This document shows, piece by piece, positions 20,301-41,300 of a DNA stretch of 64,000 nt. This stretch comes from Escherichia coli (GTDB lineage Bacteria; Pseudomonadota; Gammaproteobacteria; Enterobacterales; Enterobacteriaceae). Each line of letters starts with the position of its first letter. Positions within the stretch are counted from its first letter, which is position 1. The position numbers are program-made. The stretch lies in the NCBI RefSeq assembly GCF_024223415.1, contig NZ_CP100500.1, one strand, 5' to 3'.

Positions 20301-23300
20301 ATACCCACCTGAATGATGCTAAGCCCGATAGAAGTAATAACCACACCGGTAACCAGTGGCGGGAATAAAGGCATCAAGCGACCGATAAGTGGCGCTAATA
20401 ATGTGGTGATAAAACCCGCGGCGATAGTGGCACCAAATATACCCAGCAGGTCGATATCCGGGTTCATCCCAATGGCTATCATTGGTGTTACAGCAGCAAA
20501 GGTCACCGACATAATCACCGGCAGGCGGATCCCCATAAAGCGGCCGATACCTATACATTGCAATAATGTGACGATCCCGCAGCAAAAGAGATCCGAGCTA
20601 ATGAGCATCGCAATAGCTTCTTTTGAGAGGCCCAGTCGGTCACCAATCATAAGAGGAACAGCGACTGCACCTGCGTACATGACAAGGACGTGTTGCAGAC
20701 CGAGTATGATCAGCTTTCCTGGTGATAATATGCGGTCAACCTCATCAGTTGGGCGGTCTTGCCCAGAAGATGAGGGAAGTTGGGAATCTATGGCGCTCAT
20801 CAGTGTTTCTCCTTTCGCCCGCCAGAGTAAAAAGCAACCGTTTACGTTAATGAAACTGTCTAAACACATGCTCGTGGAGTGCCAGTTTTTGCGAGGAAGG
20901 GGAGTTAGAGACAGGAATTGCGGAGGCAATCACATAATCGTGCTTAAACCACGAAAATGACAAGAGAACCTGACAATGGAATTATCTGTAATTTTCTCAT
21001 ATTGATATTTCATTAATCATTCTGGCATGTCGCACTCTCGCATTTAATCGTTTTTATCTGGATAGCGCTCTTTTGATCGGCAATGTTGAAATAATGAAAG
21101 CGGCATAGATTGAGGGGCAATAATTTGAACTCAGTAGCAAAATTATAATTAAAACGGTCATGCTACCTAATATATGCCCGTTTATTGCATCGCGAAATTT
21201 GAGAAGACATAACTCATTAAATGAAAGGGATGCAAATGAATAAGTTTATCGCTGCTGAAGCTGCGGAATGTATAGGCTGTCATGCTTGTGAAATTGCCTG
21301 TGCGGTGGCACACAATCAAGAAAACTGGCCGCTGAGTCACAGTGACTTTCGACCGCGTATCCACGTTGTAGGGAAAGGCCAGGCTGCGAATCCGGTGGCC
21401 TGCCATCACTGCAACAATGCCCCTTGCGTTACGGCTTGTCCGGTTAATGCTCTGACTTTCCAGTCCGATAGCGTACAACTGGACGAGCAAAAATGTATTG
21501 GTTGTAAAAGATGCGCAATCGCTTGCCCCTTTGGCGTCGTTGAGATGGTCGATACGATTGCGCAGAAATGCGACCTTTGTAACCAGCGCAGTTCCGGCAC
21601 GCAAGCCTGTATTGAAGTCTGCCCAACACAGGCGTTACGGCTGATGGACGATAAAGGGTTACAGCAGATAAAGGTGGCCCGCCAGCGCAAAACGGCAGCA
21701 GGAAAAGCGTCATCAGACGCTCAGCCATCTCGCAGTGCAGCGTTGCTCCCCGTTAACTCGCGTAAAGGCGCAGATAAAATTTCAGCGAGTGAACGGAAAA
21801 CCCACTTTGGCGAAATCTATTGCGGGCTGGATCCACTGCAAGCGACTTATGAGAGTGACCGCTGTGTTTATTGTGCCGAAAAAGCTAACTGCAACTGGCA
21901 TTGCCCGCTGCATAACGCTATTCCGGATTACATCCGTCTGGTACAGGAAGGAAATATTATTGAAGCGGCAGAACTTTGCCACCAGACCAGTTCCTTACCA
22001 GAAATCTGCGGCAGGGTATGCCCACAGGACCGTCTTTGTGAAGGCGCATGTACTTTGAAAGATCACTCTGGCGCAGTCACTATCGGTAATCTGGAACGCT
22101 ACATCACCGATACCGCGCTGGCGATGGGCTGGCGTCCCGATGTCAGCAAAGTTGTTCCCCGTAGCGAAAAAGTGGCGGTGATTGGGGCTGGGCCAGCAGG
22201 GTTAGGGTGTGCTGATATTCTGGCGCGCGCAGGAGTTCAGGTTGATGTCTTTGATCGCCATCCAGAAATTGGCGGTATGCTGACTTTTGGCATACCTCCT
22301 TTCAAACTCGATAAAACGGTATTAAGCCAGCGGCGAGAGATATTCACCGCAATGGGAATCGACTTTCATCTTAACTGTGAAATTGGCCGCGATATTACCT
22401 TTAGCGATTTAACTTCTGAATATGATGCAGTTTTCATCGGCGTGGGGACTTACGGGATGATGCGAGCTGATCTGCCGCATGAAGATGCGCCCGGTGTCAT
22501 TCAGGCTCTACCGTTCTTGACTGCCCATACCCGCCAGCTCATGGGGTTGCCGGAGTCTGAAGAGTATCCGCTGACGGACGTGGAAGGTAAGCGAGTCGTG
22601 GTATTGGGCGGTGGCGATACGACAATGGATTGTTTGCGGACTTCCATCCGCCTCAATGCCGCCAGCGTGACCTGCGCGTATCGTCGTGATGAAGTCAGTA
22701 TGCCGGGCTCGCGCAAAGAGGTGGTCAATGCGCGCGAGGAAGGTGTCGAGTTTCAATTCAATGTTCAGCCGCAATATATCGCTTGTGACGAAGATGGGCG
22801 TTTAACTGCGGTGGGCCTGATTCGTACCGCCATGGGTGAGCCGGGGCCGGATGGTCGCCGTCGTCCTCGTCCGGTTGCGGGTTCAGAGTTTGAATTGCCC
22901 GCCGATGTTCTCATTATGGCCTTTGGTTTCCAGGCGCATGCCATGCCGTGGTTGCAGGGCAGCGGAATTAAACTCGATAAATGGGGCCTGATTCAAACCG
23001 GCGACGTTGGGTATTTACCTACCCAGACGCATCTGAAAAAAGTCTTTGCTGGTGGGGATGCAGTTCATGGCGCGGATCTGGTTGTCACTGCCATGGCCGC
23101 AGGAAGGCAGGCGGCGCGCGATATGTTAACTCTGTTTGATACGAAGGCATCGTGATGAAATCGTTAATTATCGTTAATCCGGCTGACTGTATTGGCTGCC
23201 GTACTTGTGAAGTGGCCTGTGTGGTCGCTCACCCTTCAGAACAGGAGTTGAATGCCGATATCTTTTTACCCCGGCTGAAGGTACAGCGACTGGACTGCAT

Positions 23301-38300: not shown

Positions 38301-41300
38301 TAGGATTTGATATTGCCGTTGCCGATATTTATCGCGAAAGCCTCAATCCTGAACTATTCCCACCATCAACCACGCTTCTCCATGCTGAGTCGTTTGGTGC
38401 GGCAGTGGAAGCACTGGATATTCGCCCTGATAATTTTGTCCTGATTGCCACGAATAATCAGGATCGTGAAGCCCTCGACAAACTCATTGAACAGCCCATT
38501 GCATGGTTGGGGTTGCTGGCAAGTCGTCGCAAGGTTCAGCTTTTCCTGCGTCAATTGCGTGAGAAAGGCGTGGCTGAAGAACATATTGCCCGTTTACATG
38601 CGCCCGTTGGTTACAACATAGGTGCGGAAACGCCGCAGGAGATCGCCATCAGCGTGCTGGCAGAAATATTACAGGTGAAAAATAACGCGCCGGGTGGGCT
38701 GATGATGAAACCTTCTCATCCTTCCGGACACCAGCTGGTGGTGATTCGCGGTGCGGGAGATATCGCCAGTGGTGTGGCGCTACGTCTGTATCATGCGGGT
38801 TTTAAAGTGATCATGCTGGAAGTGGAAAAACCGACAGTGATTCGTTGTACCGTGGCGTTTGCCCAGGCCGTGTTCGATGGCGAAATGACGGTCGAAGGCG
38901 TCACTGCCCGCCTGGCAACCAGCTCTGCGGAAGCGATGAAACTTACCGAACGCGGATTCATCCCTGTGATGGTAGATCCCGCCTGTTCATTGCTTGATGA
39001 ACTGAAACCGCTTTGCGTGGTGGACGCTATTCTGGCGAAACAGAATTTGGGAACGCGGGCAGATATGGCACCAGTAACAATCGCGCTTGGGCCTGGCTTT
39101 ACTGCTGGGAAGGATTGTCATGCGGTAATTGAAACAAATCGCGGGCACTGGCTCGGTCAGGTGATTTACTCTGGTTGTGCGCAGGAGAATACCGGTGTTC
39201 CTGGCAATATTATGGGGCATACCACCCGACGGGTGATCCGTGCTCCTGCTGCAGGCATTATGCGATCCAACGTGAAATTAGGCGATCTGGTGAAAGAGGG
39301 CGATGTGATTGCCTGGATTGGTGAGCATGAAATTAAAGCACCGTTGACGGGGATGGTGCGTGGCTTGTTGAACGACGGACTGGCAGTGGTCGGTGGTTTT
39401 AAAATTGGTGATATCGATCCTCGTGGTGAAACGGCTGATTTCACCAGCGTTTCTGATAAAGCCCGGGCGATTGGCGGCGGCGTACTTGAAGCGTTAATGA
39501 TGTTGATGCATCAGGGCGTTAAAGCGACGAAAGAAGTGCTGGAAGTGGCTTAAATGAAAATGGCCGGATGGTATTACCCACCCGGCCTGAGACTGATGAC
39601 AAACGCCAAATTGCCTGATGCGCTACGCTTATCAGGCCTACAAGTGCATTGCAATCTATTGAATTTGCGATGTTTTGTAGGGCGGATAAGGCGCTCGCGC
39701 CGCATCCAGCATCAACAAAGCGCACTTACTTGACAATCTTTGGCCGGATGGTATTACCCACCCGGCCTTAAAATTACTGACAAATCACCGTTCCGGTTTT
39801 GCCTTCAATCCCTTCTTTCGCTTTGCTCAATACGGTAATCAGTGCTTCACGACCTGCGCGAGAGCGAGCAAACGAGGCGGCAGCTTCCACTTTAGGCAGC
39901 ATAGAACCTTTCGCAAAATGACCTTCTTCGATAAAGCGTTCAGCATCACTTAATGACAGGCGATCGAGCCACTGTTCATTCTCTTTACCGAAGTTAATGG
40001 CCACTTTTTCTACCGCAGTCAGAATGATCAGCATATCGGCATCAATCATTTCTGCTAAACGGGCGCTGGCCCAGTCTTTATCGATAACCGCACTGGCACC
40101 ACGCAGGTGGTTACCTTCACGAATAACAGGGATACCACCACCGCCAACGGTAATCACTACCTGGCCTGCTTCTACCAACGCTTTAACCGTTTCTTTTTCA
40201 ATGATATCAACCGGTTTTGGCGAGGCAACAACACGGCGATAGCCGCGACCAGCATCTTCTTTCAGAGTGTAACCCTGTTTTGTCAGTTGCTCTGCTTCTT
40301 GCTCGGTAAAGAACGAACCGATCGGCTTGGTCGGGTTGAGGAATGCCGGGTCGTTAGCATCGACTTCGACCTGGGTAACCAGCGTTGCTACAGGTTTATT
40401 AATGCCACGAGAAAGCAGTTCTTCTCTTAATGCGTTTTGTAGATCGTAACCAATATAACCCTGGCTTAAGGCAACACAGACAGACATCGGCAGCATTGGC
40501 GAGTGTGCTTCAGTTTTTGCGGCAGCTTCAAATGCCTGGTTAATCATGCCCACCTGCGGCCCGTTACCATGAGTGACGATAACTTCATGTCCCTGGGCAA
40601 TTAAATCAACAATTGCCTGAGAAGTAATTTTTACCGCTTTCATTTGCCCGGCCAGGTCATCGCCCAGCGCATTCCCGCCCAGGGCGAGAACAATTTTCTT
40701 ACTCATTTTTCCTCACTCATCATTCTTGATTGTGTATAGATCCCTGGCAGTGGTTAGAGCACGGGAGGGACAAACGGTTTGCGTCGCAGGAAACGACCTC
40801 GCCCGGCTTTGCCTGTAAAGGTGCCGTCACAGAAAATCGTTTCACCACGGGATAAGGTTCTGACAATCGCGCCCTGACAGGTAAAACCCTCCCATGGCGA
40901 GTAGTCGGCGTTGTCGTGGAGATGGCGATGCTGAATTTGTTGGCTCTGACGTGGGTCGATAATCACCACGTCGCCGTCGGAACCGGGCGCTAATAATCCT
41001 TTTTGCGGCCACAGGCCAAACAGCCTGGCGGGCATTGCGCTGGTTAATTCAACAAAGCGTTCCGGTGTTATACGTCCCGTCATCACGCCACTGGAAAACA
41101 GTAACTGCATGCGGTTTTCCACACCGGGTAAGCCATTTGGGCAGCGACTGAAATCGCCTTTAGAAATTTGCAGGCGTTGAGCCATCGAGAAGGTGCAGTG
41201 ATCGGTTGCCACCACGTCAATCGCACCATCGCTGATGCCACACCACAGTTTGTCCTGCTCGCGTACGTTACGCAGCGGTGGGCTAAGAATGAACTTCATG

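Follow-up and report, generated by a model that had tools for sequence, protein, structure and literature searches.

What does the tightly packed minus-strand block ygfK-ssnA-ygfM-xdhD of Escherichia coli do, does its molybdenum (Mo) enzyme use selenium, and how do electrons reach the Mo centre? We examined a 64,000-nucleotide stretch of E. coli contig NZ_CP100500.1 (assembly GCF_024223415.1), hereafter the window, in which a preliminary description had placed a selenium-dependent Mo hydroxylase module embedded in purine salvage genes. We put the probability at roughly 85% that the segment at 21236-39553 is the upstream half of an anaerobic purine/urate catabolic island of E. coli, transcribed from sigma-54 promoters that are most likely driven by the activator YgeV. 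The cluster and its chemistry are already known, mostly worked out between 2023 and 2025, and the interpretation in the preliminary description, which repeats that of Haft & Self (2008), has been overtaken. Gut bacteria carrying the cluster dispose of about one-third of human urate, and probiotics against gout are being engineered to carry it. What still carries weight in this locus is whether the E. coli enzyme uses selenium and by what path electrons reach an Mo centre that appears to lack an iron–sulfur (Fe-S) wire.

The role of the locus is anaerobic purine catabolism by the 2,8-dioxopurine (reductive urate) pathway. E. coli XdhD, purified by affinity with a co-purifying protein of ~30 kDa that is taken to be YgfM, converts urate to 2,8-dioxopurine (“yanthine”) in an NADH-dependent reaction (Li 2025). 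With NAD(P)H, the E. coli YgfK and SsnA proteins carry 2,8-dioxopurine on to ureidomethyl-hydantoin (Li 2025), from which the second half of the pathway yields pyruvate, NH3 and carbamoyl phosphate/ATP (Li 2025; Liu 2025). The phenotypes of ∆xdhD, ∆xdhA and ∆ygfK strains of E. coli agree with the pathway (Li 2025). The same pathway operates in Clostridium sporogenes, where the Mo enzyme is named 2,8-dioxopurine dehydrogenase (DOPDH) (Liu 2025). The purine setting given in the preliminary description therefore stands, but not as salvage, and the substrates that it called poorly defined are those of the published reactions. XdhD does belong to the Mo-hydroxylase family, as had been said, but the “hydroxylase” runs in reverse as a C6 dehydroxylase of urate (Li 2025).

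An older database name makes XdhD a hypoxanthine/xanthine oxidase of purine salvage. Its homology to XdhA (517 bits, under the cut-off) and the adjoining permeases and guaD would fit that name. The mutant data refute it unless they prove condition-specific: ∆xdhD cells still consume xanthine and accumulate urate, whereas ∆xdhA cells do not consume it, and what the enzyme makes once purified is 2,8-dioxopurine (Li 2025). XdhD also falls in an equivalog of its own, TIGR03313, far under the XdhA cut-offs. We regard a salvage oxidase as extremely improbable. Scarcely better is the prospect that YgfK, YgfM and XdhD form a selenate reductase feeding selenide to SelD, which is largely refuted as a primary function. 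RefSeq and NCBIfam do call YgfK a “putative selenate reductase subunit YgfK”, and mutants losing selenate reduction have been described (Bebien 2002, as cited by Haft & Self). Against this, the purine substrate of XdhD is defined (Li 2025), the operon is urate-induced, and the reductase homologues do not track selD (Haft & Self). YgfK itself is an NADPH:2,8-dioxopurine oxidoreductase for which selenate is neither required nor stimulatory, despite the annotation (Liu 2025).

We propose that the permeases UacT, XanQ and GhxQ, together with GuaD and XdhABC, would funnel purines to urate. XdhD–YgfM, a xanthine-oxidase-family enzyme bearing the molybdopterin cytosine dinucleotide (MCD) cofactor, takes the C6 oxygen off urate to give 2,8-dioxopurine, after which the Fe-S flavoprotein YgfK reduces this product with NAD(P)H and SsnA hydrolyses the ring; published biochemistry shows these steps. 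YgfT and YgfS may pass electrons from formate towards NAD(P)H or into the pathway, as their domains and the reported genetics suggest. Both ygfT and ygfK are urate-induced, and ygfT is reported to be necessary for formate-dependent urate use, a statement known through a citing paper.

The gene content agrees with this reading. All 12 named genes of the segment are intact at their coordinates according to the open reading frame (ORF) list, the RefSeq annotation of the best match and the translations. YgfT, XdhD (TIGR03313), YgfM (TIGR03312), SsnA (TIGR03314), YgfK (TIGR03315), MocA (TIGR03310), YqeC (TIGR03172) and YqeB (TIGR03309) each score above their own NCBIfam equivalog cut-off, so the gene identities assigned in the preliminary description are right. 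The genes xdhD, ygfK and ssnA lie in one tight operon, and their products score far over the cut-offs. Its tight packing was also described exactly: the ygfM stop and xdhD start share ATGA, a 4-nt overlap, and ygfK and ssnA are 2 nt apart (ssnA and ygfM, 50 nt). Such overlaps and short gaps are usual operon packing and no statistical anomaly. A hairpin after xdhD is likely the 3’ end of the ygfK-ssnA-ygfM-xdhD operon, to judge from a consensus scan. Within YgfK, we found Fer4_20 (453-532), Pyr_redox_2 (552-839) and 4Fe-4S dicluster (894-955) domains. A Pfam search matched no family in its N-terminal 450 residues and did not detect the DHO_dh TIM-barrel of dihydropyrimidine dehydrogenase; a flavin mononucleotide (FMN) site has been modelled within this part of the protein (Li 2025).

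The range 21236-39553 cuts the system in half. The functional unit extends to uacT (19352-20800) on one side and to yqeA, hyuA, ygeY, ygeX, ygeW, ygeV and xdhCBA (39774-51861) on the other, with the remainder of the system reaching 51933. The downstream pathway genes hyuA, ygeW, ygeY, ygeX and carbamate kinase are intact and adjoining (39774-45902). The genes ygfT and ygfS had been placed upstream of the block; they lie on the plus strand, past its 3’ end and past the permease and guaD genes. At least 80% of the segment is present in 5154 of 5426 complete E. coli genomes, at 95-100% identity, and it is core E. coli chromosome. The entire window is collinear with strain NCTC9112.

Using the site sequences published from chromatin immunoprecipitation sequencing (ChIP-seq), we located all five sigma-54 sites of the region, each matching the window base for base (Bonocora 2015). 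The island thus has the features of a regulon of sigma-54 and a bacterial enhancer-binding protein (bEBP), with −24/−12 elements upstream of the operons and an adjoining enhancer-binding protein gene, ygeV. The ygfK promoter is kept in Kluyvera, Cedecea, Edwardsiella, Morganella and Photobacterium. A strict sigma-54 pattern (GG/GC fixed, at most 2 mismatches) gave no match in the stretch from 15 to 55 kb, the real sites being too degenerate for it, and consensus scans for sigma-70 promoters and terminators gave matches at chance level. Mutation of the site inside yqeC left YqeB protein undetectable, which identifies it as the yqeB promoter (Bonocora 2015); the 5’ untranslated region (UTR) from it would be ~400 nt. 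That study saw no tie between YqeB and nitrogen limitation. The urate pathway supplies one, since purines are a nitrogen source.

The ygeV product is the presumed regulator of the entire island, and published work describes a YgeV iModulon made up of purine genes. We found a shared motif, CTCATATTGATA, also written (C)TCATATTGATA, with four exact 10-mers in 64 kb against 0.08 expected. Three of these, and a relaxed copy, lie upstream of the ygfT, ygfK, ygeW and xdhA promoters, and exact copies occur at equivalent places in Kluyvera, Cedecea and Edwardsiella (for the ygfK position, in Kluyvera and Cedecea). From this distribution the motif is a candidate YgeV enhancer site; the literature examined reports no YgeV binding site. 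The fourth exact CATATTGATA copy is inside guaD (25919-25928, plus strand), ~870 bp upstream of ghxQ, and may be either chance or an internal regulatory site. We also considered an FNR box. The palindrome TGATACGTATCA upstream of xdhA resembles one, but the other motif copies have no second half-site, and we rejected this candidate.

The really unexplained feature of the locus is the absence of Fe-S ligands from XdhD, and here the preliminary description was right to call the electron path poorly defined, though it had not noticed this reason for it. XdhD has the a/b hammerhead, MoCoBD_1 and MoCoBD_2 domains, Glu606 and the catalytic Glu917, which aligns with PaoC E692. Its N-terminal 165 residues are homologous to the 2×[2Fe-2S] subunit (NCBIfam XdhC/PucE, 3-145; Pfam Fer2_2, 73-145). 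There is no cysteine in residues 1-189, the first being residue 190. In an alignment with E. coli XdhC, the residues found at the eight ligand positions are D, A, D, S / S, N, S, D, within the motifs NSDDGFGFAGSDAI, VQSGYNDPAA and LFSRDAGWQ. The same replacements occur in Edwardsiella, Aeromonas, Morganella and a Rhodocyclaceae genome; in all, five orthologues and three further 50%-identity clusters share the loss. Across these taxa the cysteine-less domain is 67-75% identical, against 76-85% for the rest of XdhD, and is therefore under selection rather than decaying.

Among the best 150 representatives of 50%-identity clusters matching XdhD, 42 have a fused Fe-S-like domain. The cysteines are kept in 37 of these; all eight are gone from 4, whose identity to XdhD is 50% or more in each case. 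One further protein (P0126, 39% identical; locus L085, 1479-4310) has lost the cysteines of the first, FAD-proximal cluster (FAD, flavin adenine dinucleotide) and kept the four of the second; by its sequence it looks like an intermediate state. P0124 and P0151, ~50% identical to XdhD, retain all of them. A YgfM-like FAD_binding_5 gene comes before each of the cysteine-less and half-lost forms, and the one before P0126 overlaps it by 4 nt. In E. coli, YgfM itself matches FAD_binding_5 (E 1e-19) and its AGGS and TIGGE motifs are conserved. At the ygfM-xdhD position, two Photobacterium loci (L006 and L009, 66-7186) encode an Mo subunit that is split and shares 25% identity with XdhA, together with a cysteine-complete XdhC-type Fe-S subunit, without an FAD subunit; judged by sequence, this is a clostridial-style solution within a gammaproteobacterium.

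In canonical enzymes, two [2Fe-2S] clusters bridge FAD and Mo. Bovine xanthine dehydrogenase (XDH) has distances of roughly 8, 12 and 15 Å along an FAD–Mo path of ~35 Å. With the ligands of both clusters gone, the scheme NADH to YgfM-FAD to XdhD-Mo that has been published has no obvious physical route. The clusters go unmentioned in Li 2025, and two other papers take for granted an “iron-sulfur subunit” or a standard member of the family. We found no report of the loss of the XdhD cysteines in the literature, in a search that some key older papers fell outside. That XdhD truly has no Fe-S clusters, with its electrons taking some path other than the canonical wire, is suggested by its alignment, but we hold this conclusion only tentatively and consider it doubtful. 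If it were true, a proteobacterial XdhD clade would have dropped both clusters and kept the FAD subunit, and urate would be reduced by a route new to the xanthine-oxidase family. Possible routes are ping-pong chemistry at Mo in which a second purine is the donor, an outside redox partner that works by way of the substrate channel, or a rearranged complex with YgfK. The real electron donor matters for the enzymology of the xanthine-oxidase family and for engineering flux through the first step.

The first of these routes is a ping-pong transhydroxylation with both half-reactions at Mo. Hypoxanthine or xanthine would reduce Mo and urate would re-oxidise it, and YgfM-FAD would be a structural or regulatory part or else a slow side entrance. 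Were xanthine the donor, xanthine would on balance be converted to 2,8-dioxopurine. Such a mechanism would suit a domain conserved across orders with all eight cluster cysteines replaced, when the clusters of the bovine enzyme span so long a path. The loss common to four 50%-identity clusters, and the loss in P0126 of the FAD-proximal cluster alone, would likewise fit a wire given up step by step. Since the published NADH assay is qualitative, a slow or indirect electron route is compatible with it. That assay did, however, show NADH-dependent product formation, and the ∆xdhA strain consumed no xanthine, hence no obvious xanthine oxidation by XdhD in vivo (Li 2025). YgfM retains its FAD motifs and always accompanies the cysteine-less enzyme, and a donor at the Mo site is without direct evidence. 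We think ping-pong chemistry unlikely.

The second question is selenium, and here we lean towards XdhD being selenium-dependent in E. coli. Haft & Self (2008) suggested that yqeB (TIGR03309), yqeC (TIGR03172) and ygfJ/mocA (TIGR03310), all from this E. coli region, serve as accessory genes for selenium-dependent molybdenum hydroxylases (SDMHs). Both published markers, YqeB and YqeC, are encoded here, as the preliminary description had noted. It had also suggested a genome-context comparison with selD, which bears out the link. We built an alignment of the YqeB-type domain and scanned it against one genome per species, which gave 80 loci spanning Proteobacteria, Firmicutes, Actinobacteria, Spirochaetes, Chloroflexi, Bacteroidetes and an archaeon. 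The SelD probe used with them scored 620 bits against the SelD equivalog. Of the 80 loci, 18 have a selD gene no more than 2.2 kb from the YqeB-type gene, and 7 have it within 50 bp (~0.5 expected; P ~4e-22). The gene yqeC and an XdhC-like domain each occur in 58 of the 80, an Mo large subunit in 22, and urate-pathway genes in a minority (hyuA, the commonest, in 21). The link between the YqeB family and selenium is solid. The E. coli selD gene is elsewhere on the chromosome (b1764), not in the window.

Relatives of the system point the same way. A selD mutant of C. sporogenes yields inactive DOPDH, and in this species both selenium and Mo are required for the use of urate (Liu 2025). In Clostridioides difficile, growth on xanthine or urate requires selD and yqeB. 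The preliminary description had named the dispensability of yqeB and yqeC as evidence that would refute it; in this relative that evidence is partly at hand, since yqeC is dispensable, though yqeB is needed.

Several points weigh against the picture drawn so far. The lack of a yqeC phenotype in C. difficile is one. The literature examined holds no test of selenium dependence for the E. coli enzyme, and active enzyme came from an ordinary overnight culture for which a selenium supplement is not stated (Li 2025); selenium, yqeB, yqeC and mocA are nowhere mentioned in that paper. In the view of Johnstone & Self, E. coli “likely does not make SDMHs”. The XdhD–YgfM assay with NADH was qualitative (10 µM enzyme, 1 mM NADH, time unstated; Li 2025) and is hard to square with eight absent cysteines. 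Finally, the role given to YgfT and YgfS leans on a second-hand report of formate-dependent urate use.

Some of these points favour selenium-independent maturation, in which XdhD carries the ordinary sulfido-MCD, XdhABC and XdhD share YqeB only as an XdhC-type chaperone, and its selD-linked domain, like YqeC, is idle or otherwise used. Neumann & Leimkuhler proposed such a shared, XdhC-like role for YqeB, and Haft & Self conceded that a labile-selenium enzyme has not been observed in E. coli. The Self laboratory’s opinion and the active enzyme of Li 2025 also count on this side. Growth without a supplement says little, however, given the trace selenium in rich media. Such traces suffice for the formate dehydrogenases of E. 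coli. The isofunctional clostridial enzyme requires SelD, and the E. coli TIGR03309 domain keeps every invariant residue of a family that adjoins selD in other phyla. We consider selenium-independent maturation a serious prospect, though not the expected one.

Formate dehydrogenase H is itself a selenoprotein, and urate use by E. coli is, at second hand, formate-dependent; a selD phenotype in E. coli therefore needs controls affecting selenocysteine (Sec) only. A selenium test in E. coli would settle a hypothesis dating from 2008 and would show probiotic designers whether selenium supply limits urate clearance. If XdhD were a labile-selenium molybdoenzyme matured by YqeB and YqeC, it would be the first fully tractable genetic model of this third selenium trait.

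The maturation proteins give some clues to how selenium might enter. MocA is an MCD synthase, as the preliminary description had it, and its role was described by Neumann & Leimkuhler. Residues 12-247 of YqeB match Pfam XdhC_CoxI and XdhC_C, and PDB 2we7 (E 4e-27). An AlphaFold model of residues 271-526, made with 42 sequences (predicted local distance difference test score, pLDDT, 92.6), shows a Rossmann-like domain, in which a G-x-G-D motif is invariant, and after it a biotinyl/lipoyl-type barrel. This YqeB-type domain is 50-60% identical among Proteobacteria, Firmicutes, Chloroflexi and an archaeon, and the E. coli copy retains all family-invariant residues. We looked for an invariant cysteine in the alignment of the C-terminal domain and found none, which leaves a persulfide- or perselenide-carrier model for YqeB unsupported. 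Selenocysteine in YqeB was also rejected: the in-frame stop in Collinsella matches is the natural TAG stop, past which the tblastn alignment had run.

Metagenomic YqeB-type domains are recurrently fused to XdhC domains, and many stand alone at ~270 aa; in one protein (P0111) the domain is fused to PF12804, a MobA/MocA-like nucleotidyltransferase. These fusions tie the YqeB-type domain to maturation of the molybdenum cofactor (Moco). YqeC is predicted by modelling to be a SIMIBI-class P-loop NTPase, with a Walker A motif G27-x-G-G-K31-T and invariant E121, D123 and G124. In the maturation pathway that we propose, MocA makes MCD and the XdhC half of YqeB would hold it. The C-terminal half of YqeB, with YqeC as a nucleotide-driven helper, might then swap the terminal Mo ligand, probably for labile selenium from selenophosphate, before YqeB inserts the finished cofactor into XdhD and perhaps XdhA.

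Table 1. Genes and regulatory elements of the urate island, with positions in the window.
Feature	Position	Strand	Basis or remark
uacT, urate/proton symporter	19352..20800	-	annotation, intact ORF; system member beyond 21236-39553
CATATTGATA motif, extended form ttctCATATTGATA	20998..21007	+	175 bp upstream of the ygfT sigma-54 promoter; candidate enhancer
sigma-54 site (−24/−12 element), ygfT	21173..21189	+	exact match to Bonocora 2015 sequence
ygfT, HydN-like 4Fe-4S ferredoxin domain and GltD-like NAD(P)H flavoprotein	21236..23155	+	NF009451, 1501 bits (cut-off 1154)
ygfS, HydN-like 4Fe-4S dicluster ferredoxin	23155..23643	+	one base in common with the ygfT stop codon
ghxQ, guanine/hypoxanthine permease	23679..25046	-	annotation, intact ORF
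guaD, guanine deaminase	25082..26398	-	annotation, intact ORF
xanQ, xanthine permease	26416..27816	-	annotation, intact ORF
GC-rich hairpin GGCCGC-TTCG-GCGGCC	27956..27971	-	10 nt past the xdhD stop; consensus scan, weak evidence
xdhD, Mo (MCD) subunit, urate 6-dehydroxylase / 2,8-dioxopurine dehydrogenase	27981..30851	-	TIGR03313; activity Li 2025
xdhD codons 1-165, 2×[2Fe-2S]-subunit homologue without ligand cysteines	30357..30851	-	alignment
ygfM, FAD-binding subunit	30848..31627	-	TIGR03312; AGGS and TIGGE motifs kept
ssnA, amidohydrolase opening the reduced 2,8-dioxopurine ring	31678..33006	-	TIGR03314; activity Li 2025
ygfK, NAD(P)H:2,8-dioxopurine oxidoreductase	33009..36107	-	TIGR03315; activity Li 2025, Liu 2025
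sigma-54 promoter, ygfK	36180..36196	-	Bonocora 2015 sequence
mocA, CTP:molybdopterin cytidylyltransferase	36429..37007	-	TIGR03310, 214 bits (cut-off 186)
ATATTGATAC, relaxed motif copy	36475..36484	-	about 280-290 bp upstream of the ygfK promoter
yqeC, predicted SIMIBI-class P-loop NTPase, selenium-cofactor marker	37110..37880	+	TIGR03172, 241 bits (cut-off 73)
sigma-54 promoter inside yqeC, drives yqeB	37511..37527	+	validated experimentally in Bonocora 2015
yqeB, XdhC-type Moco chaperone (12-247) fused to TIGR03309 domain (271-526)	37928..39553	+	417 bits (cut-off 220)
yqeA(arcC)-hyuA-ygeY-ygeX(dpaL)-ygeW, second pathway half	39774..45902	-	annotation, intact ORFs; beyond 21236-39553
sigma-54 promoter, ygeW	45996..46012	-	Bonocora 2015 sequence
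CATATTGATA motif	46216-46225		about 205 bp upstream of the ygeW promoter
ygeV, sigma-54 enhancer-binding activator	46381..48159	+	annotation
xdhCBA, canonical xanthine dehydrogenase, cysteine-complete Fe-S subunit	48199..51861	-	annotation, intact ORFs
sigma-54 promoter, xdhA	51917-51933	-	Bonocora 2015 sequence
Shared motif	52031-52040		about 100 bp upstream of the xdhA promoter

In Kluyvera (L002) and Cedecea (L003), at about 600-7500 of those loci, ygfT-ygfS directly adjoin ssnA-ygfK, and xdhD, ygfM, xanQ, guaD and ghxQ are not at that position. With xdhD and ygfM absent from this place, the enzyme for the first step would have to be encoded elsewhere or to be a different protein. Two other features of the window are unrelated to the urate cluster: a copy of the IS3-family insertion sequence IS1397 between trhA and ygfZ (about 8449-9797), and type III secretion genes (sctC, sctN and others; about 55620-64000), some of them frameshifted or partial in the annotation of the matching strain.

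The closest known system is the 2,8-dioxopurine cluster of gut anaerobes (Liu/Dodd 2023, 2025; Kasahara/Rey 2023; Li/Zhang 2025), which has the same genes: xdhD/xdhAC, ygfK, ssnA, hyuA, ygeW, ygeY, ygeX and yqeA. The E. coli version described here is one of two systems in which the pathway has been reconstituted. Compared with the clostridial cluster, E. coli adds the FAD subunit YgfM, uses NADH, has YgfK in place of a PydA-type reductase, and has an Mo subunit without Fe-S cysteines. The clostridial enzymes, in contrast, have Fe-S domains, lack an FAD subunit and make no use of NAD(P)H.

The known SDMHs (Clostridium purinolyticum xanthine dehydrogenase and purine hydroxylase, Eubacterium barkeri nicotinate dehydrogenase and C. 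sporogenes DOPDH) resemble the E. coli system in pairing a purine-acting, xanthine-oxidase-family Mo enzyme with YqeB, YqeC and MocA. The likeness is known here from the genes; the E. coli selD is distant, and the E. coli enzyme works reductively. With canonical XDH (E. coli XdhABC, Rhodobacter capsulatus XDH and bovine xanthine oxidoreductase, XOR), XdhD shares the Mo domains, the catalytic E917, the FAD_binding_5 subunit and the order Fe-S-like–hammerhead–MoCoBD. It differs from them in lacking the eight [2Fe-2S] ligand cysteines, in acting at C6 rather than C2 or C8, and in its reductive direction. YqeB differs from XdhC/PaoD-type Moco chaperones in its extra Rossmann and biotinyl-like barrel module, which has no whole-module match in the PDB. 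YqeC, when set beside the SIMIBI metallocentre NTPases UreG, HypB and CooC, has no sequence-detectable relative of solved structure.

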